From NCBI GenBank assembly GCA_902625325.1, contig CACOAW010000003.1:19097-83096 (forward strand): a DNA stretch of 64,000 bases, written 5' to 3'. Made by a program: the position numbers and the translations under genes. The notes beneath the pieces were generated by a model. The model was not told where the DNA came from and ran no database searches. It saw only the letters and a program-made list of their open reading frames with translations. Below, one piece after another: positions 24,569 through 63,151 of the stretch (its first letter is position 1; every line of letters begins with the position of its first letter). This DNA comes from an uncultured Candidatus Poseidoniales archaeon (lineage in GTDB: Archaea; Thermoplasmatota; Poseidoniia; Poseidoniales; Thalassarchaeaceae).

Positions 24569-24576
24569 TTATATAA
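24569..24576 (+). promoter_or_regulatory. candidate TATA box (TTATATAA) for the methyltransferase gene at the island's left edge
   Basis: Lies within AATAATTATATAATAGG, 33-40 nt upstream of in-frame ATG 24609. This supports the shorter start. Confidence 0.35.
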
Positions 24577-24608
24577 TAGGTTATTCTGTACAAGCATGGG
24601 ACAGAGAA

Positions 24609-25724: not shown

Positions 25725-25898
25725 CTCCAATGACTAGTAATGACTTTCCAGCTCTTACATACTATTTCCTTGGTACAATCTCAATCTTATTAATTACTCC
25801 TGTCAATGCAATACACAATTACCCTTCACAAAATTTTTGATAGGTAACTTTTCCATAATGGAAGCCATCCCGAATATGTGACTCGAGGTTCAGAGGAT

Positions 25899-34124: not shown

Positions 34125-34130
34125 GGTCAA

Positions 34131-38587: not shown

Positions 38588-38884
38588 ATGGTTAGAGGTT
38601 GGTTCATTGGTGATTTTGACCCCTCAGTAATTAGGACTCCAGATTTCGAAGTTGCTGTTCAGAATTTTTCAGCTGGAGAAAAGGAAACTAAACATGTTCA
38701 CAAGATCGCCACTGAAGTTACCGTCATCGTATCAGGAGAATGTACGATGAATGAGGTGGATTACTCTTCAGGCGATATCGTCCTAATTTCACCTGGCAGT
38801 CCGAATCAATTCTCAGCCATTACAGATGTAGTAACCGTAGTGGTGAAAATTCCGAGTTTAGCTGGTGACAAGTATCTACTTTAG
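38588..38884 (+). CDS. cupin-domain protein
   Basis: GEKETKHVHKIATEVTVIVSGECTMNE..YSSGDIVLISPG is the two-motif cupin pattern. An alternative TTG start at 38549 overlaps the upstream stop. Confidence 0.55.
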   Translation: MVRGWFIGDFDPSVIRTPDFEVAVQNFSAGEKETKHVHKIATEVTVIVSGECTMNEVDYSSGDIVLISPGSPNQFSAITDVVTVVVKIPSLAGDKYLL

Positions 38885-38936
38885 ACCATCACATTCAATA
38901 GAAGTTCTGATTAATATCCCACGAATCCAAAAAAAT

Positions 38937-43555: not shown

Positions 43556-43652
43556 GCATTGCCGTCAGGTTTCCGGCTTATCATCAATCTCATTGCCAGA
43601 TTTATTTTCAAAACGTCAAACCCTTTTTCCCCTGAATATATTCGGAGACACG

Positions 43653-45464
43653 ATGTTGGGGTCAGGACTATTGCGAGTTCGACTACTCAAAATCTCCAGA
43701 AGAAAATATAATTCTACACAATTTCGTAAAGCAGCAAGATACTCCAGAATAACTCAACTTATTTTCCGTGATAGAGAAAGCCTGGATATCCTAGCTAGAA
43801 GCTATCTCCGCATAAAGAATTATGATGGCGCCTGTAAAGCGTATAGAAAGGCGAATAAAAATGGTTTTGCTCTTTTAGACCATGAAATTAATCACTTCCG
43901 TTCAGAGTTGGGCGCTCAGAATTATCAAGATGCATTTATCGCTCTCCAGAGAGTGAAAGGGAGGGAACAAACAAAGAAGTGCACCTCACAATTGAAAAAA
44001 GAACTCTTGAAAATAACTGACTCTGAGAGGGTGTTAATAATCCAAGAGATGAGCTCAATTCACCCCCTTCCCAGAGAAATATCGGAGCTATTACCTTGGT
44101 CACCGAGAAAAATTGATTATGAAAAAACCGAGACAGATGACTTTGGAATTATCGACTCAAAGAACCTTGATTCTGAACGATATAAGAGAAAGCTCTCAAG
44201 AGTCCTATCTTCAGGAACTTACCGTGTGTCCGAACACCTTTCGAAGTCACTCAAAAGCCCCCTGAGAACCATCTTTCTACCAATTTCTACTCCTTTTCTG
44301 ATTCTAGATATTTTCAGAGAGAGAATTGGTTCGATCAGTGCCTCCGATAATTCGGTGAGTGTACCTAACTCTGTAGAATCTCGGCGCGACTCGATAGTCT
44401 TCTTTCCAACTAATGGGGTTGGGTTTGGCCATTTCACAAGACTTCTTGCTATCGCCCGGAAAATAAGAGAATCTCAACCATCTACAGAGATTGTCTTTTT
44501 CACCACTATGCCGACACTCCACATTCTTGCTGAGGAGGGATTCGTGTGCTATCACATGCCGGGCCGATATAGGTACAAAGGAATGGAAGCAAAATCCTGG
44601 AACGCTATGTGTGAAGAGATGCTATCTTTGATTTTTTCACTTCACAAGCCAAGTGCATTTGTTTTTGATGGATCCTTTCCCTACCGAGGGATGCTCGATG
44701 CAGTAAAATCCGAGACAAAAAGTATGCTTCGCCTTTGGGTAAGGAGGGGCGCAATTAGAAGAGGTTCAAAACCAATTCCAGTGGATAGTATAGGCCATTT
44801 CCATGCCATTATTAGGCCAGGCGATTCAGTCCAAGACTCATTTGTTGATGAAACGAGGCACAATATACCAATAGTAAGATCGCAACCAATACTTTTGGAA
44901 TCAAATAGTGGGGATAAGCAAACGTTTGGGATTCGTAAGAGGCTCGGAATCCCAGATGAAGCAATTTTATGTTACGTCCAATTAGGTGCTGGAAAAATAA
45001 ATGACATAGATTCAGAATTGGAAATGACTCTTGATGCACTAGACTCCTACTCACAGACATATGTATTACTCGGTGAATCAATGTTAGGTTCTCGTATACC
45101 TGTAAACTATGAGCGTGTCCGGGTTTTACGAGATTACCCCAATTCGAAATATTTTGATGAAATAGACTTCGCGGTAATTGCGGGAGGGTACAACTCGTAT
45201 CATGAAGTAGTGAGTTCGGAACTCCCTTCACTCTGTTATCCTAACATGAATACTGGTCGAGATGATCAACTTGCGCGTGCAAATATTGCCAAGGAAGCGA
45301 ATGCAATGGTGGTTATCGAAAGAAGAACCAAAGAGAAAATAAGGTTGGGTATAATGAGAATGATGGATTCTAAGAATAGAGAAAAAATGCGCAACTCGCT
45401 CGTCAAATTAAAGAGAAAAAATGGCGCTACTGAGGTTTCTGAATGGATAATCAACCAAATCTGA
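43653..45464 (+). CDS. GT-B-fold glycosyltransferase (MurG/GT28-GT1-like) with ~260-aa N-terminal helical (TPR-like) region
   Basis: IVFFPTNGVGFGHFTRLLAIARKI (Gly-rich loop of the GT-B N-domain) and FAVIAGGYNSYHEVVSSELPSLCYP (C-domain). ATG 43653 is preferred over TTG 43593. Confidence 0.55.
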   Translation: MLGSGLLRVRLLKISRRKYNSTQFRKAARYSRITQLIFRDRESLDILARSYLRIKNYDGACKAYRKANKNGFALLDHEINHFRSELGAQNYQDAFIALQRVKGREQTKKCTSQLKKELLKITDSERVLIIQEMSSIHPLPREISELLPWSPRKIDYEKTETDDFGIIDSKNLDSERYKRKLSRVLSSGTYRVSEHLSKSLKSPLRTIFLPISTPFLILDIFRERIGSISASDNSVSVPNSVESRRDSIVFFPTNGVGFGHFTRLLAIARKIRESQPSTEIVFFTTMPTLHILAEEGFVCYHMPGRYRYKGMEAKSWNAMCEEMLSLIFSLHKPSAFVFDGSFPYRGMLDAVKSETKSMLRLWVRRGAIRRGSKPIPVDSIGHFHAIIRPGDSVQDSFVDETRHNIPIVRSQPILLESNSGDKQTFGIRKRLGIPDEAILCYVQLGAGKINDIDSELEMTLDALDSYSQTYVLLGESMLGSRIPVNYERVRVLRDYPNSKYFDEIDFAVIAGGYNSYHEVVSSELPSLCYPNMNTGRDDQLARANIAKEANAMVVIERRTKEKIRLGIMRMMDSKNREKMRNSLVKLKRKNGATEVSEWIINQI

Positions 45465-46755
45465 TTGAAAGATCCTGCCAGAATGATGTAAGCTTCTCTT
45501 GCCCCCGCCTCGCCTTTTCAGAATCTAGATGAGGCCTCATGTCCCAAGTTTTCAGCACATTCTCTTGAGTAGGATTCATGATTGGCAGATATTCAATAAT
45601 CTTCTCTCGAATACCATGTCTATTTTTACTAGGAACAAAATCAATTGATCCTGGATACCAAGTTTCAAGTAAACTAAGATCGATAGACATATCCAACTTA
45701 TCTGCAATCGGTTTTAGATATGGAAAATCACTCAATTCTATTCTCTGAAGGGCGTATGCAACTACATTTTCATGAGAAATGGGGAATTCTGATAATTTTT
45801 TTTGCACTTCATTTGTTTTCATCATATCTAGAAAATTTTGCCCCCCCACACCTCCCAAAGAAAAGGCCAAAAGCTCTTTTCTGAAGCATTTCCAGCACCT
45901 CATACATGGTTTACCCCATCCTCCCCTAATGCAAGATTGGCTATAGTGGCCAAGTGGTGATTTTTCCCCAATTATTGCAGTTCCTATTTCGCTAACTCCA
46001 ATAACTGGCATCGATAACTCAATCCCAACTGAATCAAATAAAGTACTGTAAAATCTCCAGTGGGCACCTCTTCCATAGTCTATGAATTTTGAATGCCCAA
46101 GCCCAAATCCTGATTCCATTATTGTACCAAATGCCAATGAATCAAGGTTCAGATACTCAGATAGAAGTATTGCAGGAATAGCGTTGGCAAGATCTGTTGG
46201 AAATCCTACTGGCGTCCTGATGTATTCTAAATTTGTTGATATCACCTGTACATCATAACCAACATCGGATAACTCCTTACATATCTCTAGAGGAGCTTCT
46301 GAATTATACGAAGAACCCTTGGCAATCGGTCTATTGAGAAATATCGGAATAGTTTCTGAAGGCATTATCGCCAGAGCTGCAGACGAATCTGCCCCTCCAC
46401 TAAATGCCAGTCCGGGAAAACTACCCCCGGTCTTGTTTATATTTGAGATCTCGGAGTTGGTATTTGGAGTTAGTTTATATCTGCTAATTACAGATTGCGC
46501 CTTTTTGTGAAACTCTTCACTGACTGGAACCGGAAGAGATAACTCTTCACCAACAAATGGATTACATAACAAAATTGTCGACAAGGCTAGTAAATCAGGA
46601 TGAACTTCATGGGGCTTAATTTTTCCGTCCAAATCAAAGAATATCTCAATTTCATTCATTTTGAAGGGTAAATCACTCTGTAACAATCGATCGGCATTCT
46701 CATTTTCAAATTTCATCAGTATCTTCCCGTCTCGAAATTCTACTGATGATTTCAT
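45451..46755 (-). CDS. PP-loop ATP-pyrophosphatase-superfamily protein with QueC-type Cys4 zinc motif; specific function unknown
   Basis: FSGGADSSAAL (SGGxDS PP-loop, nt 46384..46401) and CIRGGWGKPCMRCWKC (C-x8-C-x2-C-x2-C, nt 45886..45933). It has extra N-terminal (~115 aa) and C-terminal (~140 aa) regions. Confidence 0.6.
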   Translation of the reverse strand: MKSSVEFRDGKILMKFENENADRLLQSDLPFKMNEIEIFFDLDGKIKPHEVHPDLLALSTILLCNPFVGEELSLPVPVSEEFHKKAQSVISRYKLTPNTNSEISNINKTGGSFPGLAFSGGADSSAALAIMPSETIPIFLNRPIAKGSSYNSEAPLEICKELSDVGYDVQVISTNLEYIRTPVGFPTDLANAIPAILLSEYLNLDSLAFGTIMESGFGLGHSKFIDYGRGAHWRFYSTLFDSVGIELSMPVIGVSEIGTAIIGEKSPLGHYSQSCIRGGWGKPCMRCWKCFRKELLAFSLGGVGGQNFLDMMKTNEVQKKLSEFPISHENVVAYALQRIELSDFPYLKPIADKLDMSIDLSLLETWYPGSIDFVPSKNRHGIREKIIEYLPIMNPTQENVLKTWDMRPHLDSEKARRGQEKLTSFWQDLSIRFG

Positions 46756-46783: not shown

Positions 46784-47944
46784 ATGCTTATACCAGTAAT
46801 TTCTTCCCAATCATTATTTTTACTGAAACGTATACCGGAAAGTGTGTCAGATACCGTAATCCTTGTTGCGGGGGCTCGTCCAAACTTCATGAAGATAGCC
46901 CCAATACATAAGCAATTGAGACATAGAGGGGTAAATACCCTCCTAGTCCATACCGGGCAACATTATGATCATAATATGAGCCAGGTTTTTTTCGATGAAT
47001 TAGGAATTCCCGAACCAGATATCCATATGGGGGTGGGCAGCGATTCCCATTCAAGACAAACTGCCAAAATAATGATTCATTTCGAAGACGTTTGCCTGGA
47101 ACATAATCCTCGAATGGTGGTTGTTGTCGGAGATGTCAATTCCACCTTGGCATGTGCAATAACTGCAAAAAAACTTGGGATTACAGTCGCTCATGTAGAG
47201 GCCGGACTCCGGTCCAGAGATATACAAATGCCCGAGGAAATCAATAGGGTCTTGACTGATAGAATTTCAGATCTACTTTTCACAACTTCCAGAGGTGCAA
47301 ATGAAAATCTTTTTTCAGAAGGTTGTTCATCAGAAAGTATTTTTTTTGTGGGTAATGTTATGATTGACAGTTTGTATAAGGCGGTAAAACACTCTCAAAA
47401 ATCTACAATTTTGAAGGATATCGGAGTTGTGGAACAAGGATACTGCCTAGTAACAATGCACCGGCCATCTAATGTTGATAATTTATCAACTCTCTCAGGA
47501 TTAATTCTAGCTCTTGAACAGATTTCAAGAGAAATTCCAATAATTATTCCTGCACATCCAAGGACCGTTCATTCTCTAGAAAGATTCGAAATGGCTGATA
47601 GGATAAGAAATAATAATCAAATTTATCTTATTCCGGCACAGGGATATTTTGATTTCATCAATCTCGTAAAAAATTCGAAATTTGTTATGACTGATTCAGG
47701 TGGTTTGCAGGAGGAATCCACAATATTGGGGGTGCAATGTCTGACACTTAGAAAGAACACAGAAAGGCCAATAACTGTGACTCAGGGTACAAACAAGGTA
47801 GTTGGTACTGAGACAAAGGATATCATAGACGCGTTTCACAATCTGGACTTTTCTAAAAAAACTCAAAGTCCAGAATATTGGGATGGAAAGACTGCCCATC
47901 GAATTGCCAAGGTAATCGTTGATCAGTTAAGCGCGGCAGTCTAA
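46784..47944 (+). CDS. wecB: UDP-N-acetylglucosamine 2-epimerase (non-hydrolysing)
   Basis: GARPNFMKIAPI, HTGQHYD, GDVNSTLA, HVEAGLRS, MTDSGGLQEE. Confidence 0.85.
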   Translation: MLIPVISSQSLFLLKRIPESVSDTVILVAGARPNFMKIAPIHKQLRHRGVNTLLVHTGQHYDHNMSQVFFDELGIPEPDIHMGVGSDSHSRQTAKIMIHFEDVCLEHNPRMVVVVGDVNSTLACAITAKKLGITVAHVEAGLRSRDIQMPEEINRVLTDRISDLLFTTSRGANENLFSEGCSSESIFFVGNVMIDSLYKAVKHSQKSTILKDIGVVEQGYCLVTMHRPSNVDNLSTLSGLILALEQISREIPIIIPAHPRTVHSLERFEMADRIRNNNQIYLIPAQGYFDFINLVKNSKFVMTDSGGLQEESTILGVQCLTLRKNTERPITVTQGTNKVVGTETKDIIDAFHNLDFSKKTQSPEYWDGKTAHRIAKVIVDQLSAAV

Positions 47945-50900
47945 TCTTCTCTGATGAATAATTCTATTTCCTTTGGAATTGTGACATCATGTGATGTCTG
48001 CCTCCTCACTCTTTTTGCCGCCTTATTCGATTTTTTGATAAACAATTCCGGATCATTCACCAACTCTTCTATTCCATCCGCCAGTCCAATGTGATCTTCT
48101 GGTTCAGCTAAAATAGAACATCCCCGATTCACAAATTCCGGGATTGCCGAAATCCTATTTGTGGCTGGAACTAGGCCACAAGACATAGCTTCATCCCTCC
48201 CCACTCCGTGTGAGTCCCATCTAGTAGGAGTTAAGAAAATCCCGAATTCCTGGAAAACCTTTTCGTACTCTTCATTTGTAAGGAAACCTCTTATCAAAGT
48301 GACATTTTCAAATCTTTCCAAAGGCCTAGTAACTTCTTCATACAGGGCACCATCTCCAATAATTGTGAATTCTAATTTCTTGAAACAATCCCTCCCTGAT
48401 AATTCAAGTATAGTATTTGCAGATATGTCGTTCGCATATTTTTCAGAGGCGAAGGTCCTGATGGATAGGACTTTGAAACGGTCACTCCTTTTCCTTTCTT
48501 TGAAGACAAATCTATCAGTATCTATCGGATTATGTATTATCGAATACCCATCTTCCCTTAGGGAGACCCCATAGTCTTCCATCACCTCCTCAGAGAAATA
48601 TCTAGAAACAAAAATTAGATGTAAATTTTGAGGCTGATCCCAAAGTAAGCCTTTCCAGAAGGCCTCCCTCTCTTGGCTCGCTAAGATCGCTCGTTCTCTC
48701 TCTTGATGGGTTTGATAATTGAATTCTCTTCTATGCCATGGCTGAATCTCCGAACCATGAACCCAAACATAGATTTCGGTATCATCTTCGAATTTAGATA
48801 AAACTTCCCACATTTCCTTGTTTAGAAAGTGGACGAGAATTGAATCATATCTATTGTCTGAAATTAACCTTTCTAGAGCTGTAGATGAGCCAGTGATTAC
48901 CTCTTGGCCTTCAAATTCATGGAAACTCAAAGGTGCGTTTAGCCTATGTCTGAAAACATCAACTCCCACCTCAAATGAATTATATCTTACAATTCTGCTG
49001 TGTATGAACGCATTCTTGTACAAATCGTCATACTCCGGATAATTATTTGTTAAGACTAATTGTTTGTTCCTACTCTCAACAAAACTCACTCCCCCGATGT
49101 CCCTGAATCCTATATCTATTGATCGTATCAAAGATCTTCCGGAAGAATAGGATCTAATGCCCAATAGTATGGACTGTGTTCCTTCAGCAATGTCAACTTC
49201 TGAATTGGTTCTGGAGGGAATTATCTGCGATCCAACCCTCTCTCCATTTCCATCAAAGAAAATAAATGCCAGTGAGAGTGACAAACCCGATTCACAATCA
49301 AAATAAAATTTACCTTTTCCATCAACAAAACCAAGCTCTGGAGGAGTAATTTTTTGTTTGGAGTAGTGATAATGGTGCTCACCGTCTCTCATTGAAGACT
49401 CAATAAAAATATAATTTTCATCATAGGTTAATGAGAGATTTTCTCGATTAAATTCAGAGAAAATTTCGGGCAACCCAATCCCCCTCACGGGTTTATCTGG
49501 TCCAGACACAACTTCTTTCTCCCCCATCTTATCAATTTCAGAAATATTGTATCCCTGATCGACATTTTTCAGATCTAAAACACGACCCAATTCTTCTTCA
49601 GAAAAGTTATTTTTCGGAGAAAACCAGTTTTCAAAATAATTGAATCCATCTATAGAAATGATACTCGAAATGCCCAGAGAATTATCCTCAACACTTCGAA
49701 TAAATGATTCAATGCTCAAATCCAATCCAGCCAATGATTGCGTCTTTATCACGCACGACCCAGAAGTCCATTTCTCTACGATTTTGTACTCTTCTCCATT
49801 TCCAAAATATTCCATTTCACCTCCATCGGTAATTTTCCAATAAGAGGCCTTAGTAATTGCATTACTATCACAATACCTAGTTGCGAGAGTAATGTCTGTG
49901 AGATAATTTTCCCCATAGAAGTTTAACGGTTTGAAAACCGCAACAAGACTCGAGTCCCGTAAGTTGTCTAACAATGGAGATTTCGCCGCCTCCCGAGTAC
50001 TAACCAGGCTTGCTTCTACAGTGTCTTTGACTGGCAATACAGAGATATCGTCTGAAATTATAATTAATCTTTTTTCTAAAACTTGCTGTCTTTCAACAGA
50101 CTCGAAGACAGACTGGAGCTCCTTTTCGGATGAACACTCCGCAATAATCGTAACCTTCGGACGCTTCCACTGGTATCCTTTCCCTATTATTTTGAAGATT
50201 CTGGACATTCTGTCATGATAAGTATGCTCAGTCATTACCTTCCTGAGTGCAAGCAACCTTCTCTTTTTACACCGATGATCTTCTCGGACATATTCATCCA
50301 GCTCTCTCCTAGAATTTACTCCATCGTCCGAAGCAATTAGTAAGTCTCCAAATAGGATCTTTAAACTTCTAGAATAGTTTGAAATTATCATCGTGTTCGA
50401 AGCCGCCAATTCGAAAACTCTCCTAGCCATCATTGTCTGTGAGTCCTTTACAGAATTGAAATTAAGTGCGTAATCAAATCCTTTGTATGCCTTGCTTATC
50501 TCATCATATGGCAGTTTTCCTCGGATTAACTCTTGGAACTTATCAGGAAACATGTATCTGCTATCTTCTGTCTGAAAATTCCTATCATATATCGTAACTG
50601 GAATCGGGCCCTTGGCGTACTCACTAATCACCGAATGCATATCTTGACACCTTCTGGTGTATCTCTCATAGTAAGCCCCTGCAAAACAAATCCCCCTTTC
50701 TCGTTCAATTTCCTCAATCGGATTATGAATCGCCGGTTCACAGGCAAATGGGAGAAAGTATGCACTATCGTTCCCCAGTGATTTCCTATACTTTTGAACA
50801 CAATCAATATCGGTAGTAAATACATTATCGAATAATTTAGCCGAATTAATGAATGTATTGAAGTGAACAGGGTCTTCTTTATTCCAGAATATGGTAACAA

Positions 50901-53900
50901 CGCCGTTCATTTTGCACCAATATAATAGCTCTACCAATTCAGATCCGCGGTGTGAGATTTTCCCCTTCCATTCGGAGTTTTTTCCATCCCAAGCAGATTC
51001 TACAAACAGAATTTCTGGGGAATTTTCCTCCATCTCTTCTCTCCAGTTAGTGGCCGATAACTGAATCATGTTACATGTATGCCTGAACGAGGAGTAAGAG
51101 AACTCGTCCAGAATACAGGCCACATTAGCCGATTCCATTGATTTACCGGAAAACAACCTCCTCACGGATTTGCTTACAACCTTATTTTCCAAATGTTTAA
51201 CCATATTGGATATTCTCTTCCCATGTTCTTGTTGCTCCCCAATCCCTATTTTGTCCTCCAAGAATGATATCATTTCTTCTTTCCATCCACCTTTTTCCAT
51301 TTCGGAGACCAGACGTAATGATCTGTCGAATTTCTTTTCTCTGTTGTGAATAGTGACCCCTGTTCTGAGGGATCTGTAGTCACCAAATAGTGTAAAAAAC
51401 TCATCGAACAACTCTATTGCTTCTGAGTTATTTTCCTTCGAAAGACCTCTTAATCCAGCAGTAAAGATATTCCTTCCCGATCTGTGTTCACTATCGGTCA
51501 AGCCCCTCAACACACTTGATATCAAATCCTTTTTCCGGATGTTAAGGCATCTGCTGTAATGATCAGCCAAGGACATTGTCAGTTCTATTTCAGCATAAGT
51601 TCCGTTACCGGAGGACAAAATCTCAAAATCAGCGTATTTTCGGATTAATGGTTTCGTCAAGAGACTCCATAATCGATTTTCTGAGACCCATTTCCTCCCC
51701 CTCTCTCCGTATCCGGTTATTTTTTCTGATCCACTAACTATGCCCTTTATCTTCTCCGCGAGATGTTCTGGATTATCCTTTTCAAATATGATGCCACTAT
51801 TGCTTTCTCTCACAATTTCCGTCGCTACAGTAACGTTACTCATTATCACTGGCTTAGAATATGCCATTGCTTCAATCGGTTTTATTGGAGGGATCAGTTC
51901 ACAGACTTTGTAGGATTTTCTAGGAAGTACCACTGCATCAATATTTTTGTAAAATTCACCAATCTCTTCCCGTGGAATCCTCCCCATGAAGTGAAAGTTA
52001 TCATCTATTCCCAAATCAGAAACCTGTTCTCGCAATTCCTCCTCCGAGCTCCCTCCCCCGGCAATTAGACACTTTACCCCCATCCTTTCTTTTTTTGAAA
52101 GAATGGAGATACTCTTTGCCAGATCGTCTAACCCTTCGTATGGCACAATTGAGCCAATATATCCTAGGACCAGCGTTTGCTGATCTTTGGATATTTCATC
52201 TCTACCACCAGTCTCATAATTCCCAAGAGGGAGATGAGTTATTCCATTTGGAAGAACAGAAATTTTTGATGAATCGACTCCCCAAGACTTAACCTCTTCC
52301 TTCAGTGATTCCGAAATAACAAACAAATGATCAGCAGCCATTGCGCATTGTTTTTCTAGTCTTATCATTAAAGCAAATCTTGGATCACTAGCAAAACCAG
52401 GATTGTTTGCGGCCCTAGAGAATGCCCAAACACCCCTCATTTCGTAAATGAATGGGACGGACAATGATTTTGCCACAATGGCAGAAGCAAGACCTATAGT
52501 ATGATCAGAACAGGCATGAATTATCGATGGCCTATGCTCAATAGCTTTGGATAGGATAGATTTAGCAGCTAACTGAACGTAATCCTCCATCTTGTTATCA
52601 TACATTCCAGAACTATCAGGGGAGAATATGTGATTAACACCATCAATTTCGATACTCTCTGGAATCACCTCTTCTCCAACATAATCACTCCTATCAACAG
52701 GGAAACCCCATCTAGAATTTACAATTATGTTCATACCAGATTCACTCATTGAATCTATAATGCCCTTACTCCTTATGGTGTATCCAGAAGTGATGTATGG
52801 CAACGAAGAATGAACGTTATACAAAACGGTTCCAATTTTTGGCTTGCTGTATTCAGATAAATCTCCAAGGAAGTCCAGGTCATATCCATTTTCCAACCAA
52901 TCCCTCCTCTTCTCAATTTGACGTAGCAATGTTAGCGAAGATGGTTGCAAAGAACCTTGCAAAGCCCCTATCGCTTCGGTATAGTTACCCATTCTCTCGT
53001 AGCATTGAGATGCTACCCTAATTATCCTCTCATCCGATTTATTTTCTGCCAGATAGTCATGCATTATTTCCAAAGCAGATTGAGGCTTTGAAATCATTAG
53101 TACCCTAGATGCGGCTAGAATAATTTGAATCCTCCTACTAATTCCTAAATCATTACTCAATATCGTATTAGAAATTTCTTCAATAACTGAATCATCACCA
53201 AACTCATTAATTTGGGCTGAGATTCTTGACTCTAATGTATGGAGTGGCAGTTCTGCCAAATCTGAAGAAAACTCTCCAAATTCTACCATCTCGCTGTTGA
53301 ACAGGACCTCTTTTTTATTTTCTAGCATAAGTGCACGTAGTTTTTTGACTGTGAATTCTATTGATTTATCAGGATCAGATTCACGTAAGAATTGACGAAT
53401 TAATGACGAGTCTTTTCCAATCCAAGTCAGCGATTCCCATAAGTGATTTTTTCCTACTTTTTCTGGAAAATTTCGATTTTTTAATGATTTGATTATTTGT
53501 GTCTCGTCTCCTTCTAGAATTATTGCTTCTATTTGTTCTAGAATTTTCCATTTTTCGAAATCTCGGTCTTCTTCCGAATCTATAGAATTACTCAATCGCA
53601 AGGCTTCAAAGAGAAATCCTTCTCTCTTGCATGAAAAGAATACTGCTCTCTTAATCCTGTTATCGATTAGATTTTGTCCAAGAGACCAATAATACTCAAT
53701 CCCGCACCTTTCTGAAAATTCTGCAAGAACCCTGAAGATAGAAATGCAAATTTCTTTCGTCAGAACTGGATTGATTTTGTAAGAGTCCTTCGTGACCTCT
53801 AATAGCACATCCTTGACATTCAGAACATTATATTCTAATGCCGCAAACAGTACTCTTCTCAATCTATTCGTCAGGGCATCAATACCAGGAGTTTCCCTTC

Positions 53901-54276
53901 TAAAAAAGAACTCAATTTCTTTACGAGCAATATTTTCAATTAACCATTTTTCTTGCGGGGAAATTCGTAAAGCGTCAATCAAGATTTCTTGGCGGTGGAG
54001 TCCTTCGGATAGTTCGGACAATAAAACTACTGCCTCAATAGAATCAGGATTACCAAGGACCACCTCTAGAACGCTTTTTCTTGCAACCTCAAAATCGCCG
54101 CTCTCTTTCAATTCCTCTATCCTTTCTCTATCAATAAGAACTGCCTTACTTGTAGAATTAGTACCATCCTTTTCAACTTCAATGCGCTGTAAATTATCAG
54201 GATTCGACTGTAAATCTTCAATTTCCATAAAACCGATTTTTTTTATTTTCCTAAGCAGTTTTGCCAGCGGGCCCAT
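47941..54276 (-). CDS. giant multidomain glycosyltransferase (~2,111 aa): helical/TPR-like N-terminus, GT4, helical linker, CgeB-like GT, GT2-like, unassigned beta-rich module, GT4
   Basis: Residue numbers count from the track's TTG 54306. GT4-1 is ~490-880 (ACSDHTIGLAS, LGYIGSIVPYEGL, IKPIEAMAYSKPVIMS). The CgeB-like domain is ~1060-1345 (ILFVESAWDG, TIFWNKEDPVHF, FLPFACEP, ICFAGAYY, MMARRVFELAASNTMIISN). The GT2-like domain is ~1380-1560 (RPKVTIIAECS...RLIIISDD). GT4-2 is ~1750-2121 (IFVSRYF, IIHNPID, FTIIGDG, WDSHGVGRDEAMSCGLVP). ATG 54276 lies 2 nt after the wecC-like stop and is preferred. Confidence 0.75.
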   Translation of the reverse strand: MGPLAKLLRKIKKIGFMEIEDLQSNPDNLQRIEVEKDGTNSTSKAVLIDRERIEELKESGDFEVARKSVLEVVLGNPDSIEAVVLLSELSEGLHRQEILIDALRISPQEKWLIENIARKEIEFFFRRETPGIDALTNRLRRVLFAALEYNVLNVKDVLLEVTKDSYKINPVLTKEICISIFRVLAEFSERCGIEYYWSLGQNLIDNRIKRAVFFSCKREGFLFEALRLSNSIDSEEDRDFEKWKILEQIEAIILEGDETQIIKSLKNRNFPEKVGKNHLWESLTWIGKDSSLIRQFLRESDPDKSIEFTVKKLRALMLENKKEVLFNSEMVEFGEFSSDLAELPLHTLESRISAQINEFGDDSVIEEISNTILSNDLGISRRIQIILAASRVLMISKPQSALEIMHDYLAENKSDERIIRVASQCYERMGNYTEAIGALQGSLQPSSLTLLRQIEKRRDWLENGYDLDFLGDLSEYSKPKIGTVLYNVHSSLPYITSGYTIRSKGIIDSMSESGMNIIVNSRWGFPVDRSDYVGEEVIPESIEIDGVNHIFSPDSSGMYDNKMEDYVQLAAKSILSKAIEHRPSIIHACSDHTIGLASAIVAKSLSVPFIYEMRGVWAFSRAANNPGFASDPRFALMIRLEKQCAMAADHLFVISESLKEEVKSWGVDSSKISVLPNGITHLPLGNYETGGRDEISKDQQTLVLGYIGSIVPYEGLDDLAKSISILSKKERMGVKCLIAGGGSSEEELREQVSDLGIDDNFHFMGRIPREEIGEFYKNIDAVVLPRKSYKVCELIPPIKPIEAMAYSKPVIMSNVTVATEIVRESNSGIIFEKDNPEHLAEKIKGIVSGSEKITGYGERGRKWVSENRLWSLLTKPLIRKYADFEILSSGNGTYAEIELTMSLADHYSRCLNIRKKDLISSVLRGLTDSEHRSGRNIFTAGLRGLSKENNSEAIELFDEFFTLFGDYRSLRTGVTIHNREKKFDRSLRLVSEMEKGGWKEEMISFLEDKIGIGEQQEHGKRISNMVKHLENKVVSKSVRRLFSGKSMESANVACILDEFSYSSFRHTCNMIQLSATNWREEMEENSPEILFVESAWDGKNSEWKGKISHRGSELVELLYWCKMNGVVTIFWNKEDPVHFNTFINSAKLFDNVFTTDIDCVQKYRKSLGNDSAYFLPFACEPAIHNPIEEIERERGICFAGAYYERYTRRCQDMHSVISEYAKGPIPVTIYDRNFQTEDSRYMFPDKFQELIRGKLPYDEISKAYKGFDYALNFNSVKDSQTMMARRVFELAASNTMIISNYSRSLKILFGDLLIASDDGVNSRRELDEYVREDHRCKKRRLLALRKVMTEHTYHDRMSRIFKIIGKGYQWKRPKVTIIAECSSEKELQSVFESVERQQVLEKRLIIISDDISVLPVKDTVEASLVSTREAAKSPLLDNLRDSSLVAVFKPLNFYGENYLTDITLATRYCDSNAITKASYWKITDGGEMEYFGNGEEYKIVEKWTSGSCVIKTQSLAGLDLSIESFIRSVEDNSLGISSIISIDGFNYFENWFSPKNNFSEEELGRVLDLKNVDQGYNISEIDKMGEKEVVSGPDKPVRGIGLPEIFSEFNRENLSLTYDENYIFIESSMRDGEHHYHYSKQKITPPELGFVDGKGKFYFDCESGLSLSLAFIFFDGNGERVGSQIIPSRTNSEVDIAEGTQSILLGIRSYSSGRSLIRSIDIGFRDIGGVSFVESRNKQLVLTNNYPEYDDLYKNAFIHSRIVRYNSFEVGVDVFRHRLNAPLSFHEFEGQEVITGSSTALERLISDNRYDSILVHFLNKEMWEVLSKFEDDTEIYVWVHGSEIQPWHRREFNYQTHQERERAILASQEREAFWKGLLWDQPQNLHLIFVSRYFSEEVMEDYGVSLREDGYSIIHNPIDTDRFVFKERKRSDRFKVLSIRTFASEKYANDISANTILELSGRDCFKKLEFTIIGDGALYEEVTRPLERFENVTLIRGFLTNEEYEKVFQEFGIFLTPTRWDSHGVGRDEAMSCGLVPATNRISAIPEFVNRGCSILAEPEDHIGLADGIEELVNDPELFIKKSNKAAKRVRRQTSHDVTIPKEIELFIRED

Positions 54277-54278
54277 AA

Positions 54279-55583
54279 TTACACCCCGATTCCATGATAT
54301 TTCCAACCGATCCTTTCCATTTCGGATCTATCCAATGCCCTCCTGCCGTCGAATACGACGCCCGACCTGCAATTTTTCAGAATTCTGACCCAATCTAAAG
54401 ATAAGCAATCATCATGAGCAGTTGCTAAAACCACCATATCACATTCTGTTCCAATCGGATTATCGATGTTTTCGCACCATTCTGGGAAGTCAGCATCTTC
54501 TACAAATGGGTCCCAAATCATCACCCTAGTCCCATTTTTTTCCAATTCCTCTATCATTATCTTAACTGGAGTCTCTCTACTATCACCCAATCCAGGTTTG
54601 TATGAGTATCCAAGGACTAGGACCTCCTTTCCCTTTGCTCCGTTCAATAGATCTTTAATTTTCTCAACTGCGAAAATTGGCATCGACTCGTTTATCATTC
54701 TAGAAACTGGACTTATTTCTGATTTCGTTCCGGATTTTCTACATAATTCAATGTAATAATACGGGTCTACCGGGATGCAATGGCCACCGACGCCGATTCC
54801 TGGCTCATGATAGTGAAAATTCCACTTGGTCCTGGCCGCCTTAAGGACATCCATAACATCCAGTCCGATAGAGGGGAGGGTTTTGGATAACTCGTTAACG
54901 AAAGCGATATCAATATCCCTCTGAGTGTTTTCTACCATCTTTGCGGCTTCTGCAACTTCAATTTCACCCACATAAGTACAACCTCCTGAGGTAATTTTTC
55001 CATAAACTTCGGCAAGCATCATTCCAACTTTTTCATCGATGGAACCGACTATTCTAGCGACTTGACTTGCGGACTTTCCGATATCCCCTGGACTTACTCT
55101 TTCCGGAGAATATGCAAGCTGGAAATCTTCTCCCATGACCAAGTCGTATTTTTTAGCCGACCTTTCGGCCAGCATTCTTGTTACTCCCGGAAAAACTGTA
55201 CTTTCTAACACCACTATTGTCCCAGATCTACTTTTTACATTCTTGATCGTTGAATCCATCGCCATCTCCACAAAACTAAGATCCGGAGTCTTGTCTTCAT
55301 GAGTAGGAGTGGGGACGGTTATCACTACCATATCAGAAGATTTCACGGCTTCTTCATAATCAGATGTGATTTTCCATCTACTGGACTGATATGGAATATC
55401 CCAACCAATCGTTGAATCGGAAAGATGTGAAATCCCTCTCGACAGTTTCTCTACTACATTTACATCAACATCTAGCCCTGTTACCCTGAATCCAGAATCA
55501 TGGAAAGCAATCGATGTCGGGAGGCCTACGTAACCCAAACCAATAATTGCAACATTTTCAATATCCTTATTTTCAGATGTCAT
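54279..55583 (-). CDS. nucleotide-sugar dehydrogenase (UDP-ManNAc dehydrogenase WecC/Cap5O-like)
   Basis: VAIIGLGYVGLPTSIAF (Rossmann fold), GGHCIPVDPYY (catalytic Cys), VLGYSYKPG. The ManNAc substrate call rests on the adjacent wecB and is an inference. Confidence 0.75.
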   Translation of the reverse strand: MTSENKDIENVAIIGLGYVGLPTSIAFHDSGFRVTGLDVDVNVVEKLSRGISHLSDSTIGWDIPYQSSRWKITSDYEEAVKSSDMVVITVPTPTHEDKTPDLSFVEMAMDSTIKNVKSRSGTIVVLESTVFPGVTRMLAERSAKKYDLVMGEDFQLAYSPERVSPGDIGKSASQVARIVGSIDEKVGMMLAEVYGKITSGGCTYVGEIEVAEAAKMVENTQRDIDIAFVNELSKTLPSIGLDVMDVLKAARTKWNFHYHEPGIGVGGHCIPVDPYYYIELCRKSGTKSEISPVSRMINESMPIFAVEKIKDLLNGAKGKEVLVLGYSYKPGLGDSRETPVKIMIEELEKNGTRVMIWDPFVEDADFPEWCENIDNPIGTECDMVVLATAHDDCLSLDWVRILKNCRSGVVFDGRRALDRSEMERIGWKYHGIGV

Positions 55584-55591
55584 GAAATCAC

Positions 55592-56323
55592 CTAGGAATT
55601 TATCAATTCACGATACGAGGACATCACTTCTTCGATATCTCCTCTGAAGTGGAGGGAGCCAGAATCTAAGACAATTCCCGTGGTACATATTTCCTTGGCC
55701 AGGCCAAAAGAATGAGTAGAAATTATCACAGTACCTGACCTATCAACGAATTCTCTCAGTCTGTTTTGAGCCCTTTCTCTGAACTCGGCATCCCCCACTC
55801 CTAGAGTCTCGTCAATGAGTAATATATCTGGATCCAGTGCGGTGATAAATCCAAAACCCAATTTACCTTTCATCCCAGATGAATAACCACGAACATTTCT
55901 GTCTATGTCATCCTTTAATCCTGCAAACTCTATTACCGATTCGCAGAAATCTTGCATATTTTCATCTTCCACCCCGTATGCCAGGGCTAGCTCGGTAACA
56001 TTCTTTCTTCCCGATGTATCAGCGAAGAATCCAGGGTCAGTACCCGCAAGAAGAATCACTCTCCCGGATGTCTCAATTTTTCCTTTTGACGGTCTAACAT
56101 TGCCGCATATTGACTTCAAAAGCGTGGATTTACCAGCTCCGTTCTTCCCTATTAGAGCCACAGTTTCGCCCTTTCTAATCCTCAAGTCGATGCCATCCAG
56201 CGCGGTTATCAGCTTTATTTTTCCCCGAGGTTGGAAAATACTATGTGAGAATTCTACATATTCAATAGAAAGATTTGAAATTTTCACTTCTCCATTTTCT
56301 AAGACCATGATGAAGCCTCCCAT
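55592..56323 (-). CDS. polysaccharide/teichoic-acid-type ABC exporter ATPase (Wzt/TagH/KpsT-like), no C-terminal carbohydrate-binding domain
   Basis: Walker A GKNGAGKSTLLK, signature YSSGMKGKLGFG, Walker B ILLIDETLGVGD, H-loop STHS. Only 243 aa. Confidence 0.85.
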   Translation of the reverse strand: MGGFIMVLENGEVKISNLSIEYVEFSHSIFQPRGKIKLITALDGIDLRIRKGETVALIGKNGAGKSTLLKSICGNVRPSKGKIETSGRVILLAGTDPGFFADTSGRKNVTELALAYGVEDENMQDFCESVIEFAGLKDDIDRNVRGYSSGMKGKLGFGFITALDPDILLIDETLGVGDAEFRERAQNRLREFVDRSGTVIISTHSFGLAKEICTTGIVLDSGSLHFRGDIEEVMSSYRELINS

Positions 56324-57114
56324 CGTTGCCTATCTAGACTCGAATAACCTCGAAATGAGAGGAATATAACCGTTAATGTGACTCCTGCCATCAAAGAGAC
56401 AGAAAGCTCGGTAATTTCTGAAACAGTCCCACATGCATATCTGACTCCTTCGACAAAATATGCGAATGGATTGAACTCGTTGATTCTGTAATGCAACCCG
56501 TTCGTCAGAGTCATAGAATAGAATGCTGGAGATCCGAAGAACATCAGAAGCAGGAAGTAGTTATTCACTATCGGATATAGATCGGGCATCCTCTTCAATA
56601 ACAATGCCAAATTCAACGCCACTCCTTCTGAGAGAACACCCAATGTTACGCAGGATAATATGAAAATTGCAACTCCGAAATAATTGATGCCCATGGCCAA
56701 GAGAATTACTGCGATTCCGATTCCTTGAATAAATGAATCAAAAACTCGATACTTCAGCATCGCCCTCGAGAAAACCTTCGTACGGATTCTTTCAGCCCTA
56801 ATGCCTCCAGAAAAGTCATTCACCGAAGAAACCCCCGATTTGAATGAATTTTGGAAAACTCTGAATAGACTTATTCCAATAAATAGAACTCGAGCATCGG
56901 GGTTTGATCGAATCACCGTGAAAACAAATAGATACAGTGAAGAAAGTAAAATTGGATCCAATATCAACCAAGCGACGCCAAGACGCCTCCTTCCAGACAT
57001 AGCCCTGATCTTCCTTCGAAAGATGAAATCAACCCTTTTCTTATCCATTTTTATTTGCTTTGAACTCAGGTTATTACCGTCATGGCATCCAGAATTCTCG
57101 ATTACCCTAATCAT
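56299..57114 (-). CDS. ABC-2-type exporter permease (Wzm/TagG/KpsM-like)
   Basis: About six predicted TM helices, an N-terminal basic cytoplasmic segment, and a 25-nt overlap with the ATPase gene. Confidence 0.7.
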   Translation of the reverse strand: MIRVIENSGCHDGNNLSSKQIKMDKKRVDFIFRRKIRAMSGRRRLGVAWLILDPILLSSLYLFVFTVIRSNPDARVLFIGISLFRVFQNSFKSGVSSVNDFSGGIRAERIRTKVFSRAMLKYRVFDSFIQGIGIAVILLAMGINYFGVAIFILSCVTLGVLSEGVALNLALLLKRMPDLYPIVNNYFLLLMFFGSPAFYSMTLTNGLHYRINEFNPFAYFVEGVRYACGTVSEITELSVSLMAGVTLTVIFLSFRGYSSLDRQRWEASSWS

Positions 57115-57308: not shown

Positions 57309-58739
57309 ATGCAACATGCCGAAGTCACAGCTTCTACGACACAAGATTACTTAGTCGCCGACATATCCCTGGCTGAACTTGGCAGAAAAGAAATTGCGAT
57401 TGCCGAACACGAAATGCCAGGGCTTATGGCAATAAGAGAAAAATTCTCCACTTCTAAACCTCTCCAAGACGTCCGAATTACGGGTTCACTTCACATGACT
57501 ATTCAGACAGCCGTTTTGATAGAAACATTGGTAGATTTGGGAGCCTCAGTAAGGTGGGCAAGTTGCAATATATTTTCCACTCAAGATCATGCCGCCGCCG
57601 CGATAGCAGAATCTGGAACTCCCGTCTTTGCCTGGAAGGGAATGTCCTTAGAGGAATACTGGGATTGTACTCTGCTCGCTCTCAGCCATCCGGATGGTAA
57701 GGGGCCCCAGTTAATCGTAGACGATGGAGGCGATGCAACGCTCCTGATACACAAGGGCTACGAACTGGAGAATGGCAGTGAGTGGGTAGAAACTCCGTCT
57801 GAAAGTCACGAAGAGCAGTGCATCAAGGATATCCTAAGAAGAGTCAATTCGGAATCTCAAAATTTCTGGCACCATGTCGTCGAGGATTGTCAAGGAGTTT
57901 CGGAGGAAACCACCACAGGAGTCCTCAGGTTGAAACAAATGGTTTCGGGAAACTCACTACTGTTCCCTGCAATAAACGTAAACGACTCAGTCACCAAGTC
58001 AAAGTTTGACAATCTCTATGGATGCAGGGAATCTCTCATTGATGGGATTAAGAGGGCTACTGATGTTATGATTTCAGGAAAGACAGCCGTGGTTTGTGGC
58101 TATGGAGATGTGGGCAAAGGATCAGCACAGGCGCTAAAATCCCAAGGTGCCAAGGTAATTGTAACCGAGGTCGATCCTATCTGTGCTCTGCAAGCCTCCA
58201 TGGAGGGATTCCAGGTCCTCACTCTAGACGACACTCTTGGTTCTGCGGACATCTATGTGACTGCGACTGGAAACAGGGACGTAATCACCTTGGAGCATAT
58301 GGAGAAGATGAAAGACCAGGCAATCGTTTGCAACATAGGCCACTTCGACAATGAGATTCAGGTCGAAAGTCTAGAGTCCAGCTCAGCCACACATGTTAAC
58401 ATCAAGCCACAGGTCGATAAGTATACTTTCTCCTCTGGGAATAGCATCTACCTACTCGCATCGGGAAGGCTGGTCAATCTTGGGTGCGCCACAGGTCACC
58501 CGAGCTTCGTAATGTCAACTAGTTTTGCAAACCAAGTACTAGCACAAATTGATTTATGGAAGAATCGTAATAGTTACGAGAATATCGTATACACCCTGCC
58601 GAAGCATCTCGATGAGGAGGTAGCCCGTTTGCATCTTTCCAAGATAGGGGCAAAACTTACTATCCTTTCAGACGAGCAAGCAGACTACATCAACGTCCCA
58701 GTGGAGGGCCCTTTCAAGAAAGATGAGTACCGCTACTGA
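57309..58739 (+). CDS. ahcY: adenosylhomocysteinase
   Basis: [76 protein letters not shown]. Confidence 0.95.
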
Positions 58740-61906: not shown

Positions 61907-63151
61907 TTGGCATACTTTTTCACTTCTGAATCAGTATCTGAGGGACATCCCGACAAACTCTGCGATATGATATCGGACGCCATCTTGGACGAGTGCCTAT
62001 CCATAGACCCCGGAGCAAGAGTTGCAGTAGAGACTATGGTAAAGGGAACAGACTCTAGAAGCTATATTTTCATCGGTGGAGAGGTTACCATGGCCTCCAA
62101 CAATGCCGTAGATTACGAGAGAGTAGCCAGAAGAACGGCCCTTGAGATAGGGTACGATGACCACTCAGTAGGGATGGACGCCGCTAGTGAAGATCTTTGC
62201 CAGGTAGTAGTTAGAATAACCCAGCAATCTCCAGACATCTCGCAAGGAGTTGACCAAGGCAAGGGACTGCATCTGGAGCAGGGAGCAGGGGACCAGGGTC
62301 TGATGTTTGGTTTCGCCTCCAACGAAACAGAGGGATTCCAAGACCTACAGGGGATGTTCATGCCCCTTCCAGCGGCTTTAGCCCAATTGCTAACCTCCAA
62401 GATGTCGGCCTCGATGAAGAATGGGTCCCTCCCCTGGGCTCGACCCGACTCAAAAAGCCAGGTCACCATACGATATGGCGATGATGGAAAACCCTCTTCC
62501 GTGGACACAGTGGTAATCGCCATACAGCACGATGATTTGGCCAAAGAGAAGTTCGAAGGAAGTGAAAGGGAAGAGCACAGTTACATTTGCTCGGAAATCA
62601 TGGAGCATGTGATAAAGACAGTAATTCCCACTTCTCTTTTGGACAGAAATACGAAGATCATCATCAACGGTACGGGGAGGTTTGTTCTTGGTGGTCCCCA
62701 TGCCGATGCGGGTTTGACTGGTAGGAAGATTATCGTGGACACCTATGGGGGGATGGGGAGACACGGAGGGGGGGCCTTCAGCGGAAAGGACCCAAGCAAG
62801 GTCGATAGGTCTGCAGCATATGCTGCTAGATGGGCTGCTAAACACGTCGTCGCCAGTGGCATTGCGGATAAATGCGAGATACAGTTGGCTTATGCTATCG
62901 GGGTGGCAGAACCAGTAAGCGTCTACGTCAATACAATGGGCACCGGATCGGTCGAAGACGACAAAATCTCGATTAGAGTGGCCAATTTATTTGACTTCAG
63001 GCCACAGGCAATCATTGAGAAACTCTCCCTACGAACTCCGATATACTCTTCTTCTGCTTCTGGAGGGCATTTTGGCAGGAATCCAGATTCCGAGGGGAGG
63101 TTCTCCTGGGAGTCCCTGGACCATGAAATATTGGAATCTCTGAAAGGCTAG
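61907..63151 (+). CDS. metK: S-adenosylmethionine synthetase, bacterial/eukaryotic (MetK) type
   Basis: FTSESVSEGHPDKLCDMISDAILD, GAGDQGLMFGFA, GGGAFSGKDPSKVDRSAAYAARW. TTG start. Confidence 0.95.
   Translation: MAYFFTSESVSEGHPDKLCDMISDAILDECLSIDPGARVAVETMVKGTDSRSYIFIGGEVTMASNNAVDYERVARRTALEIGYDDHSVGMDAASEDLCQVVVRITQQSPDISQGVDQGKGLHLEQGAGDQGLMFGFASNETEGFQDLQGMFMPLPAALAQLLTSKMSASMKNGSLPWARPDSKSQVTIRYGDDGKPSSVDTVVIAIQHDDLAKEKFEGSEREEHSYICSEIMEHVIKTVIPTSLLDRNTKIIINGTGRFVLGGPHADAGLTGRKIIVDTYGGMGRHGGGAFSGKDPSKVDRSAAYAARWAAKHVVASGIADKCEIQLAYAIGVAEPVSVYVNTMGTGSVEDDKISIRVANLFDFRPQAIIEKLSLRTPIYSSSASGGHFGRNPDSEGRFSWESLDHEILESLKG

Follow-up and report, generated by a model that had tools for sequence, protein, structure and literature searches.

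A giant multi-glycosyltransferase protein in a Marine Group II archaeon: a candidate polymerase for an exported glycan

The window analyzed here is a stretch of 64,000 nucleotides from contig CACOAW010000003.1 (positions 19,097 to 83,096 of the forward strand). It encodes the small subunit of PolD, TFIIB, and an archaeal-type PheS, and a SufS cluster at >=90% identity bears the name Candidatus Thalassarchaeaceae; the host is thus a Thalassarchaeaceae archaeon, i.e. a member of Marine Group II b (Poseidoniales). Its minus strand carries a giant gene (47941..54276) that starts at ATG 54276, ends with a TAG stop, and codes for a protein of 2,111 amino acids. This product, called the polymerase below after its predicted activity, consists of a TPR-like domain, a glycosyltransferase (GT), a helical linker, and a “cassette” of four further modules. 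The gene closes an operon that also encodes a nucleotide-sugar dehydrogenase and an ATP-binding cassette (ABC) exporter of the Wzm/Wzt type, and the protein is probably a glycan polymerase working with that exporter.

The candidate polymerase gene and its modules

The original prediction for this locus had described a single uninterrupted giant open reading frame (ORF), and this description stands. The longest frame (47941..54306, minus strand) begins with a TTG, codes for 2,121 amino acids, and has no internal stops in translation; in every public assembly carrying the polymerase, the gene has been called as the 2,111-residue ATG product. Residues are counted here from ATG 54276, and the module boundaries first proposed, which were numbered from the TTG and are 10 higher, fall into place once 10 residues are subtracted. 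The coordinates also confirm the geometry described for both ends of the gene: the ATG lies 2 nucleotides past the TAA of the upstream dehydrogenase, and the polymerase TAG (47943->47941) overlaps the wecB TAA (47942-47944) within the CTAA at 47941-47944. The protein of the window is identical to that of a 148-kb NCBI contig (P0012), and six further 2,111-residue variants differ by 1-8 residues from protein P0001, with 0 frameshifts. Near-identical copies are found on at least 10 independent contigs (Tara, ENA, NCBI, and Logan, with various assemblers and samples), and their source samples are marine surface water, including the Tara 0.22-0.45 µm fraction. Two orthologs, of 2,115 amino acids (60% identity) and 2,143 amino acids (51%), keep all modules in unchanged order. 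Among the three orthologous proteins, per-module identity ranges from 34-40% in module 5, the least conserved, up to 57-73% in the three GT-B modules. Since the independent contigs, the frameshift-free variants, and the orthologs of the same architecture agree, and no frameshift splits the gene in the metagenome assemblies, the ORF is real and intact, and an assembly or sequencing artefact is excluded.

The protein begins with a short basic amphipathic helix, MGPLAKLLRKIKKIGF, followed by a low-confidence stretch (residues 1-45, 54142..54276, minus strand like all modules below). This helix is a possible membrane-association element, the residues after it are probably disordered according to the structural model, and no transmembrane segments are predicted in the whole protein. 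Next comes a TPR-like alpha-solenoid (residues 46-475, 52852..54141), whose length up to residue 475 compares with 474 and 493 amino acids in the two orthologs. The AlphaFold model of residues 1-1050, built on 4 sequences only and with an overall predicted local distance difference test (pLDDT) score of 65, has about 25 helices of 10-21 residues in the N-terminus at a pLDDT of 70-88. Pfam TPR_19 and TPR_14 match below threshold at residues 396-450. With Foldseek, the top match of this model is Cps3D (8qoy, E 2.9e-11, about 1,085 aligned columns), and SPINDLY (SPY) and OGT, which combine TPR and GT-B, are also listed among many GT4 structures. These helices, sub-threshold repeats, and structural matches together uphold the TPR-like helical character that had been proposed for the N-terminus. 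A profile search with this region found only a truncated near-identical protein, and no outside relatives within the limits of the word-indexed tool.

The solenoid leads into GT4a (residues 476-880, 51637..52851), a GT-B glycosyltransferase of the GT4 family that has both GT-B lobes. It matches Glycos_transf_1 (PF00534, E 5.5e-44, 150 bits) and Glyco_transf_4 (PF13439, E 5.6e-18, 66 bits) in Pfam, its best specific model is TIGR04063 (stp3, E 3.7e-67), its acidic-x7/8-Glu motif reads CELIPPIKPIEAM, and its relatives in the PDB are MshA, PimA, and WaaG. A linker of short helices follows (residues 881-1045, 51142..51636), which has no Pfam family match and is clade-specific. In a more distant Marine Group II relative (P0004, 1,727 amino acids, L004 4849-10032), the TPR-like domain, GT4a, and part of the linker are kept, and the cassette is swapped for a different C-terminus of about 750 residues with weak GT-B signals only. 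The P0004 gene adjoins that of a 961-residue protein without a family hit (L004 10072-12957). Judging from this case, the TPR-GT4 head looks like a module that can be swapped.

The first module of the cassette is a CgeB-like GT-B glycosyltransferase (residues 1046-1365, 50182..51141). It matches Glyco_trans_1_2 (PF13524, E 1e-12) at 48-78 bits, over the cut-off of 25, and DUF3880 (PF12996) at 16.5-20 bits, under the cut-off of 25.2; DUF3880 is matched by 12 of 25 bacterial homologs. The last module, GT4b (residues 1751-2111, 47944..49026), is a second GT-B glycosyltransferase of the GT4 type, a family to which it belongs both by its Pfam matches above cut-offs (Glyco_trans_1_4, PF13692, E 6e-11, 43 bits; Glycos_transf_1, PF00534, E 1.4e-10, 41 bits) and by its D-x7-E motif, WDSHGVGRDEAM. 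Its PDB relatives are GlgA and BshA.

Between these two lie two accessory domains. Module 5 (residues 1366-1565, 49582..50181) is the remnant of a GT-A fold of the GT2 kind. It has no Pfam match even at E 10 and is not demonstrably a GT2 enzyme, and a PDB profile search returned nothing significant (best match, the GT2 GalT1 5hea, E 0.47). A profile of 28 diverse family members nevertheless aligns to a GT2 profile in hhalign at 94% (E 1.2e-7), against 0.1-0.2% for the controls (WecB, the dehydrogenase Rossmann domain, the Wzt nucleotide-binding domain, and GT4). This alignment spans GT2 positions 2-120 only, i.e. the nucleotide-binding half. The acidic “DD” motif after strand 2 is missing. Of the DxD, the family conserves just the second Asp, inside DYYGPNYLxD, and this protein has an Asn in its place (NFYGENYLTD). 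The module keeps invariant polar residues across the 28 distant homologs. By its motifs, module 5 would thus be a GT-A-derived domain that is more likely vestigial than catalytic. The four glycosyltransferases of the original prediction are accordingly to be read as three credible catalytic ones plus one that appears vestigial: the three GT-B modules are solid, and it is module 5, lacking both a Pfam GT2 match and the GT-A catalytic motifs, that drops out of the count.

Module 6 (residues 1566-1750, 49027..49581) is a beta-rich domain of about nine strands, a figure taken from the secondary structure of an unreliable model: the AlphaFold prediction of the cassette half, made from a 3-sequence alignment, has a pLDDT of 41.6 and is unusable beyond such secondary-structure hints. 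The module has no Pfam match, and its best PDB profile match is at E 0.28, to unrelated proteins. Compared with the only long Wzt C-terminus in the fetched loci, it scores 0.1% in hhalign; Wzt is short almost everywhere in the family. Foldseek on the unreliable model lists proteins bearing carbohydrate-binding modules (Asp3 5vae, CE2 esterases, and GH26-CBM35), which is a lead only. The module occurs in tandem in some bacterial homologs, with three copies in Thalassotalea WP_193020583.1 (P0025, residues 532-993) and two in P0075 (residues 901-1193). These tandem copies show module 6 to be a domain in its own right that can be duplicated, which is often the case for carbohydrate-binding modules.

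A cassette shared with hundreds of bacterial species

The last four modules (residues 1046-2111) make up one conserved cassette of about 1,065 amino acids. A profile search with modules 5 and 6 against 1.84 billion cluster representatives (clusters at 50% identity) found 775 proteins at E<=1e-3, of which 131 reach E<=1e-30; nearly all of them are 1,000-2,300 amino acids long and are matched over a single stretch. When profiles of the individual modules were used with hmmsearch, the CgeB-like module, module 5, module 6, and GT4b were found to co-occur collinearly in 144-151 of 154 sequences. Conservation to the bacterial homologs reaches E ~1e-130 in the CgeB-like module and E ~1e-135 in GT4b. 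In a scan of one genome per species, an alignment-based query shows that at least 585 species genomes encode the full-length cassette, at 31-43% identity; with the single polymerase protein as query, the same scan gave no matches. The hosts include Pseudomonas, Ralstonia, Cupriavidus, Achromobacter, Alcaligenes, Brucella/Ochrobactrum, Accumulibacter, and Nitrospira, together with Planctomycetota, Aliarcobacter, Actinomycetes, Paenibacillus, many Clostridia, and one more metagenome-assembled genome (MAG) of the Poseidoniales.

Gene neighborhoods are conserved along with the cassette. Within 10 kb of it, a tblastn search using the proteins of the window located WecB at 52 of 79 loci, a homolog of the UDP-N-acetylhexosamine dehydrogenase at 54, and Wzt at 50. 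Bacterial members such as those of Pseudomonas putida GB-1 (ABY97296.1, 2,112 amino acids), Thalassotalea (WP_193020583.1), and Leisingera (WP_254695232.1) are collinear with residues 1046-2111 at 31-43% identity, and have the invariant residues and the linkage to wecB, dehydrogenase, and wzt in common with the archaeal protein. Collinear modules, invariant residues, and linkage thus make the polymerase a member of the cassette family. What differs is the N-terminal extension: in bacteria there is mostly a methyltransferase plus a coiled-coil-like region, or none at all, whereas the archaeal clade has the TPR-like domain, GT4, and the helical linker. Database labels of cassette proteins say only “glycosyltransferase” or “methyltransferase”, and a plasmid tblastn search gave only the generic “glycosyltransferase”.

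On an annotated Leisingera plasmid, wecC-wecB-glmM is followed by GT genes, that of the cassette GT among them, and these by a heparinase II/III-family gene, glmS, and glmU. Heparinase II/III-family domains are also seen next to, or fused with, homologs of the cassette or of GT4a (L090 15200-17377; P0005; and 1 of the 25 sampled bacterial proteins). They hint at a polyuronate product that is cleaved or epimerized after synthesis.

The polymerase's N-terminal part has a far narrower distribution. It is found in P0001-P0004 only, i.e. in the Marine Group II clade, and the fused clade is one cluster at 50% identity. At the 79 cassette loci of other genomes, tblastn within 10 kb finds the TPR-like N-terminus 0 times, and the linker likewise 0 times. 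In the other Poseidoniales MAG the genes are split: the locus has wzm, wzt, a 1,248-residue protein made of the cassette only, WecB, and a 446-residue GT4a-like protein. Fusions of GT4a to the cassette, free of TPR, occur in bacteria, in a few other proteins such as P0070, P0076, and P0154. Judged by how its parts are distributed, the polymerase gene joins, in a fusion specific to its lineage, a TPR-like domain and a linker that are both restricted to the clade, a GT4 that recurs as a partner, and the widespread cassette. The novelty first suggested for the whole protein was overstated, since its C-terminal 1,065 amino acids are found in hundreds of bacterial species and the lineage-specific parts are the TPR-like N-terminus and the linker.

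The operon and its glycan island

The polymerase gene follows three others on the minus strand: the first gene of the series, encoding a Wzm-type ABC-2 permease (56299..57114, ABC2_membrane), then a Wzt-type ABC ATPase (55592..56323, 243 amino acids, ABC_tran, nucleotide-binding domain only), and a UDP-N-acetylhexosamine 6-dehydrogenase (54279..55583), which is a three-domain UDP-sugar dehydrogenase. The genes wzm and wzt overlap by 25 nucleotides, and the gaps before the dehydrogenase and the polymerase are 8 and 2 nucleotides, respectively. As these genes overlap or sit 2-8 nucleotides apart, wzm, wzt, dehydrogenase, and polymerase are one operon. The families of the flanking genes bear out that a wzm-wzt-dehydrogenase operon of an archaeon ends with the polymerase gene. 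Convergent with it lies the plus-strand gene for WecB, a non-hydrolyzing UDP-GlcNAc 2-epimerase (46784..47944, TIGR00236 above cut-off). The best specific model of the dehydrogenase is the archaeal UDP-ManNAc dehydrogenase, followed by TviB and WecC, all below equivalog cut-offs. Wzt residues 32-238 align to positions 35-241 of the 244-residue model of galactan Wzt/RfbE without a carbohydrate-binding domain (CBD), and the TagH model also aligns end to end; family-model searches of the 243-residue protein find no CBD. The same gene order, with convergent wecB, DUF6395, a protein of about 600 amino acids, and GT1, recurs in three diverged loci (two orthologs and one farther relative).

The operon belongs to an island of about 33 kb (24400-57200), whose G+C is 0.38-0.44 against about 0.50 on either side, and which is bordered by phosphoenolpyruvate synthase/tRNA-Ala and by S-adenosylhomocysteine hydrolase (SAHH). 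In relatives, the same island adjoins SAHH or MetK (L001, L004). Its glycan genes encode a methyltransferase, an MBOAT with a DUF1574-like partner, nucleotidyltransferases, GlmS, Gmd, Fcl, a NodZ-like protein, several GT1 and GT2 proteins, DUF6395, and WecB. Because the sequence clusters of island proteins are small (2-12 members) and those of the flanking core proteins large (54-545), the island looks like a strain-variable surface-glycan island.

Several of its genes deserve mention in their own right. The membrane O-acyltransferase MBOAT (27290-28750, plus strand) directly follows a 471-residue protein with one transmembrane segment and a weak DUF1574 match; the pair (25878-28750) resembles AlgI/AlgJ and DltB/DltD, the two-component systems for O-acylation of extracellular polymers, and would suit an exported polysaccharide. 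There is a complete GDP-L-fucose branch plus a NodZ-like fucosyltransferase (33012-35108 and 38865-40055, both plus strand), in which Fcl, at 484 bits, is slightly below its 500-bit cut-off; the fucose probably belongs to the same glycan or to a neighboring one. A 623-residue protein (43593-45464, plus strand) has no significant family match, a weak N-terminal TPR, and a C-terminal half that can be read as GT-B-like with a GxGH motif. It is paired with the DUF6395 protein (45451-46755, minus strand) beside wecB in 4 of 4 archaeal loci, and has a homolog in one bacterial locus (L089). In mid-island there is also a 265-residue protein with a C-terminal SAP (DNA-binding) domain (35883-36680, plus strand). 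A small Methyltransf_24 gene (24477-25277) lies 24 kb off and is not linked to the polymerase operon. Elsewhere in the window, three genes look bacterial by their families: a CCA-adding enzyme matching PRK13299/PcnB-type models (1470-2747, minus strand), the SAHH gene (57309-58739, plus strand; long form, 476 amino acids), and a MetK-type SAM synthetase (61907-63151, plus strand).

Proposed synthesis and export of a polymer, and the control of its length

A multi-module polymerase of an ABC-transporter-dependent pathway is a known kind of enzyme, and archaeal homologs of such systems have previously been mentioned in Methanoculleus (PMC11231755). The link that had been drawn to these polymerases holds, through both homology and conserved gene context. 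WbbB of Klebsiella pneumoniae O12, ORF6 of O7, and WbdA/WbdD of Escherichia coli O9a also have multiple GT modules and no transmembrane segments; their genes likewise lie in operons with wzm/wzt and nucleotide-sugar genes, and a lipid carrier at the cytoplasmic face is the expected site of polymerization (PMC11231755). The modules themselves differ, being CgeB-like and GT4 in the archaeal protein but GT99/102/103 in WbbB and GT2 in ORF6-O7, and PDB searches gave no sequence matches to WbbB, ORF6-O7, or WbdA/WbdD. Another resemblance is to Cps3D and Cps7D, from the group 2 capsule of Actinobacillus pleuropneumoniae (8qoy), which, as here, place an N-terminal helical bundle and TPR ahead of a GT-B, and have ABC-transporter-dependent export without a terminating cap. 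Truncation of their TPR, which mediates dimerization, abolishes primer elongation and leaves the enzyme distributive (PMC11666461). The likeness to Cps3D is one of domain order and fold class, with a TM-score of about 0.14 and structures that are not superposable. Cps3D and Cps7D have a TagF-like glycerol-phosphate transferase plus a galactosyltransferase and make teichoic-acid-like polymers, whereas Pfam and NCBIfam searches find no TagF-like or phosphotransferase domain in the archaeal polymerase, which despite its TPR-like domain is thus not of this type. Finally, in the CBD-less Wzm/Wzt systems (K. pneumoniae O2a galactan, mycobacterial galactan, and TagGH), Wzt is short like the archaeal one and no terminator is encoded, but their polymerases (WbbM, GlfT2, and TagF) are unrelated to the archaeal modules.

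These comparisons bear on the built-in ruler of the original prediction, in which the helical N-terminus of about 480 residues and/or the 170-residue linker would set chain length as in WbdD or WbbB. Ruler systems have an extended coiled coil, a distal chain terminator, and, in the prototypes, a Wzt CBD that recognizes the cap (Kelly et al., 2024, PMC11231755). A layout of methyltransferase, coiled-coil-like spacer, and polymerase is indeed seen in the bacterial cassette relatives, most of which have an N-terminal S-adenosylmethionine (SAM) methyltransferase and long heptad-compatible spacers: among the 25 sampled there are 12 matches to class-I SAM methyltransferase models and 10 to the FkbM model, and one relative is annotated “chromosome segregation ATPase”. 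A heptad heuristic, which is home-made rather than a validated predictor and which gave one false segment over all cassette regions, finds at least 100 coiled-coil-like residues, and up to about 700, in 74 of 107 bacterial N-terminal extensions. The rough conservation of the N-terminal length among the orthologs would also suit a ruler. The median for the bacterial relatives is 145 coiled-coil-like residues. In the archaeal polymerase, however, the same heuristic counts 0, and when the N-terminus and linker are inspected in the AlphaFold model they turn out to be a TPR-like solenoid and short linker helices, whose 10-21-residue solenoid packing leaves no extended coiled coil. Pfam and NCBIfam searches find no terminator domain (kinase, methyltransferase, or 3-deoxy-D-manno-oct-2-ulosonic acid transferase), residues 1-475 giving only weak TPR, and there is no CBD on Wzt to couple capping to export. 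Of the features of ruler systems looked for, Wzm/Wzt linkage is present here; the coiled coil, the distal terminator, and the Wzt CBD are all missing, and a ruler in this protein is improbable. The ruler logic is right for the cassette family and wrong for its archaeal member. Even among bacteria there is a twist, as the adjacent Wzt is short in nearly all loci (L011-L089; P0022-P0170), with a C-terminal extension of at least 100 amino acids in 1 locus only. In the E. coli O9a/Klebsiella O12 paradigm Wzt has a CBD, whereas the bacterial cassette loci combine the terminator and ruler layout with a Wzt that lacks it. Because their Wzt is almost always short, even the members with a methyltransferase and coiled-coil-like region may depart from the cap-recognition paradigm.

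The reading that we consider probable is that the polymerase is a soluble or peripheral, cytoplasm-facing multi-domain glycan polymerase, whose product would be a polymer of the N-acetylmannosaminuronic acid (ManNAcA) type, exported by Wzm/Wzt and of unruled length. WecB and the dehydrogenase would convert UDP-GlcNAc into UDP-ManNAc and then UDP-ManNAcA. From this donor, the cassette, with its two GT-B sites taking turns, would assemble a repeat that contains ManNAcA; the primer would be lipid-linked and lie at the cytoplasmic face of the membrane. The fused GT4a would add a third sugar or make the adaptor where polymerization starts. The heparinase II/III-family genes near homologs fit a polyuronate product. 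By analogy with Cps3D and Cps7D, the TPR-like solenoid would more likely serve oligomerization, primer recognition, and processivity than act as a ruler. The finished or growing chain would then be exported by Wzm and the CBD-less Wzt. As terminator and Wzt CBD are both absent, chain length would be set by the coupling of synthesis to export and not by capping, as in K. pneumoniae O2a. There, synthesis and export are coupled and capping is absent. Exceptions have been noted (PMC11231755).

Several points weigh against this proposal. No characterized member of the cassette family was found in the literature or in annotations, and the polymerase activity, the donors, and the product are all deduced from knowledge of the families and from gene context. 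The dehydrogenase scores 268 bits against the 750-bit equivalog cut-off for UDP-ManNAc dehydrogenase and also resembles TviB, so the uronic acid could instead be derived from N-acetylglucosaminuronic acid (GlcNAcA). The island has yielded no initiating phosphoglycosyltransferase, ligase, or oligosaccharyltransferase, and a set of three or four GTs could just as well put together a defined oligosaccharide. This last idea, that the three GT-B modules act once each to make a lipid-linked oligosaccharide for the S-layer or a glycolipid, which Wzm/Wzt would then flip, is the foremost alternative, though an unlikely one. Archaea decorate S-layer proteins with lipid-linked oligosaccharides, and the island holds several further single GTs, GDP-fucose genes, a NodZ-like fucosyltransferase, and an MBOAT, as might be expected for a complex glycan. 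The exporter speaks for a polymer instead, since ABC-2 exporters of the Wzm/Wzt kind are typical of polymer export; the spacers and methyltransferases of the bacterial relatives make sense only for the control of polymer chain length; the GT-B pair of the cassette is invariant across phyla, as in dual-GT polymerases; and the heparinase II/III-family gene beside homologs points to a polyuronate.

Two other explanations fare worse. In Foldseek, SPY and human OGT align to the N-terminal half over 830-1,040 columns, as if the TPR bound protein substrates that the adjacent GT-B glycosylates in the cytoplasm, but TM-scores are about 0.14 and the agreement is confined to domain order. The capsule polymerase 8qoy is the best structural match, the GT-B belongs to GT4 (polysaccharide and glycolipid GTs) and not to GT41, and translational coupling ties the gene to those of a nucleotide-sugar dehydrogenase and an ABC-2 exporter. 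Such protein glycosylation is highly improbable, and we reject it on family assignment and operon context. That the gene is a chimeric assembly, or a pseudogene with dead modules, has the least chance of all: module 5 is indeed the least conserved module and has lost the GT-A catalytic motifs, yet its polar residues stay invariant in the 28 distant homologs, seven full-length variants lie only a few residues apart, and orthologs at 51-60% identity maintain a frame of more than 2,100 codons. For the ORF as a whole, the contigs, variants, and open-frame orthologs refute misassembly and pseudogenization alike.

What is new in the polymerase, then, is the TPR-GT4-linker-cassette fusion, the recognition of the cassette as a large family tied to wecB/wecC, and its two conserved accessory domains. 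A bolder reading, which we hold only tentatively, is that the cassette is an undescribed and widespread class of polymerases for ManNAcA-type acidic polysaccharides, which makes the main surface glycan of Marine Group II b and in which the TPR-GT4 head, without any terminator, replaces control by methyltransferase and coiled coil. Within such a class, the two accessory domains would have new functions: one is possibly a beta-sandwich that binds the polymer, the other a GT-A relic that binds nucleotide or acceptor. If this is true, it concerns one of the ocean's most abundant groups of uncultured archaea, and the literature searched holds nothing on the envelope chemistry of Marine Group II. 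Current models of polysaccharide assembly are not overturned; it is the built-in ruler that fails for the archaeal polymerase.

The polymerase family, present in hundreds of bacterial species of both Gram-negative and Gram-positive phyla, has been annotated as “glycosyltransferase” only. Its two kinds of head, methyltransferase with coiled-coil-like region and TPR-GT4, offer a natural comparison for the study of length control with a CBD-less Wzt. For the abundant and uncultured archaea of Marine Group II, the locus predicts an exported acidic polymer, probably containing ManNAcA, that would be made by one polypeptide. Low-GC, strain-variable islands of this kind usually govern recognition by phages and grazers.

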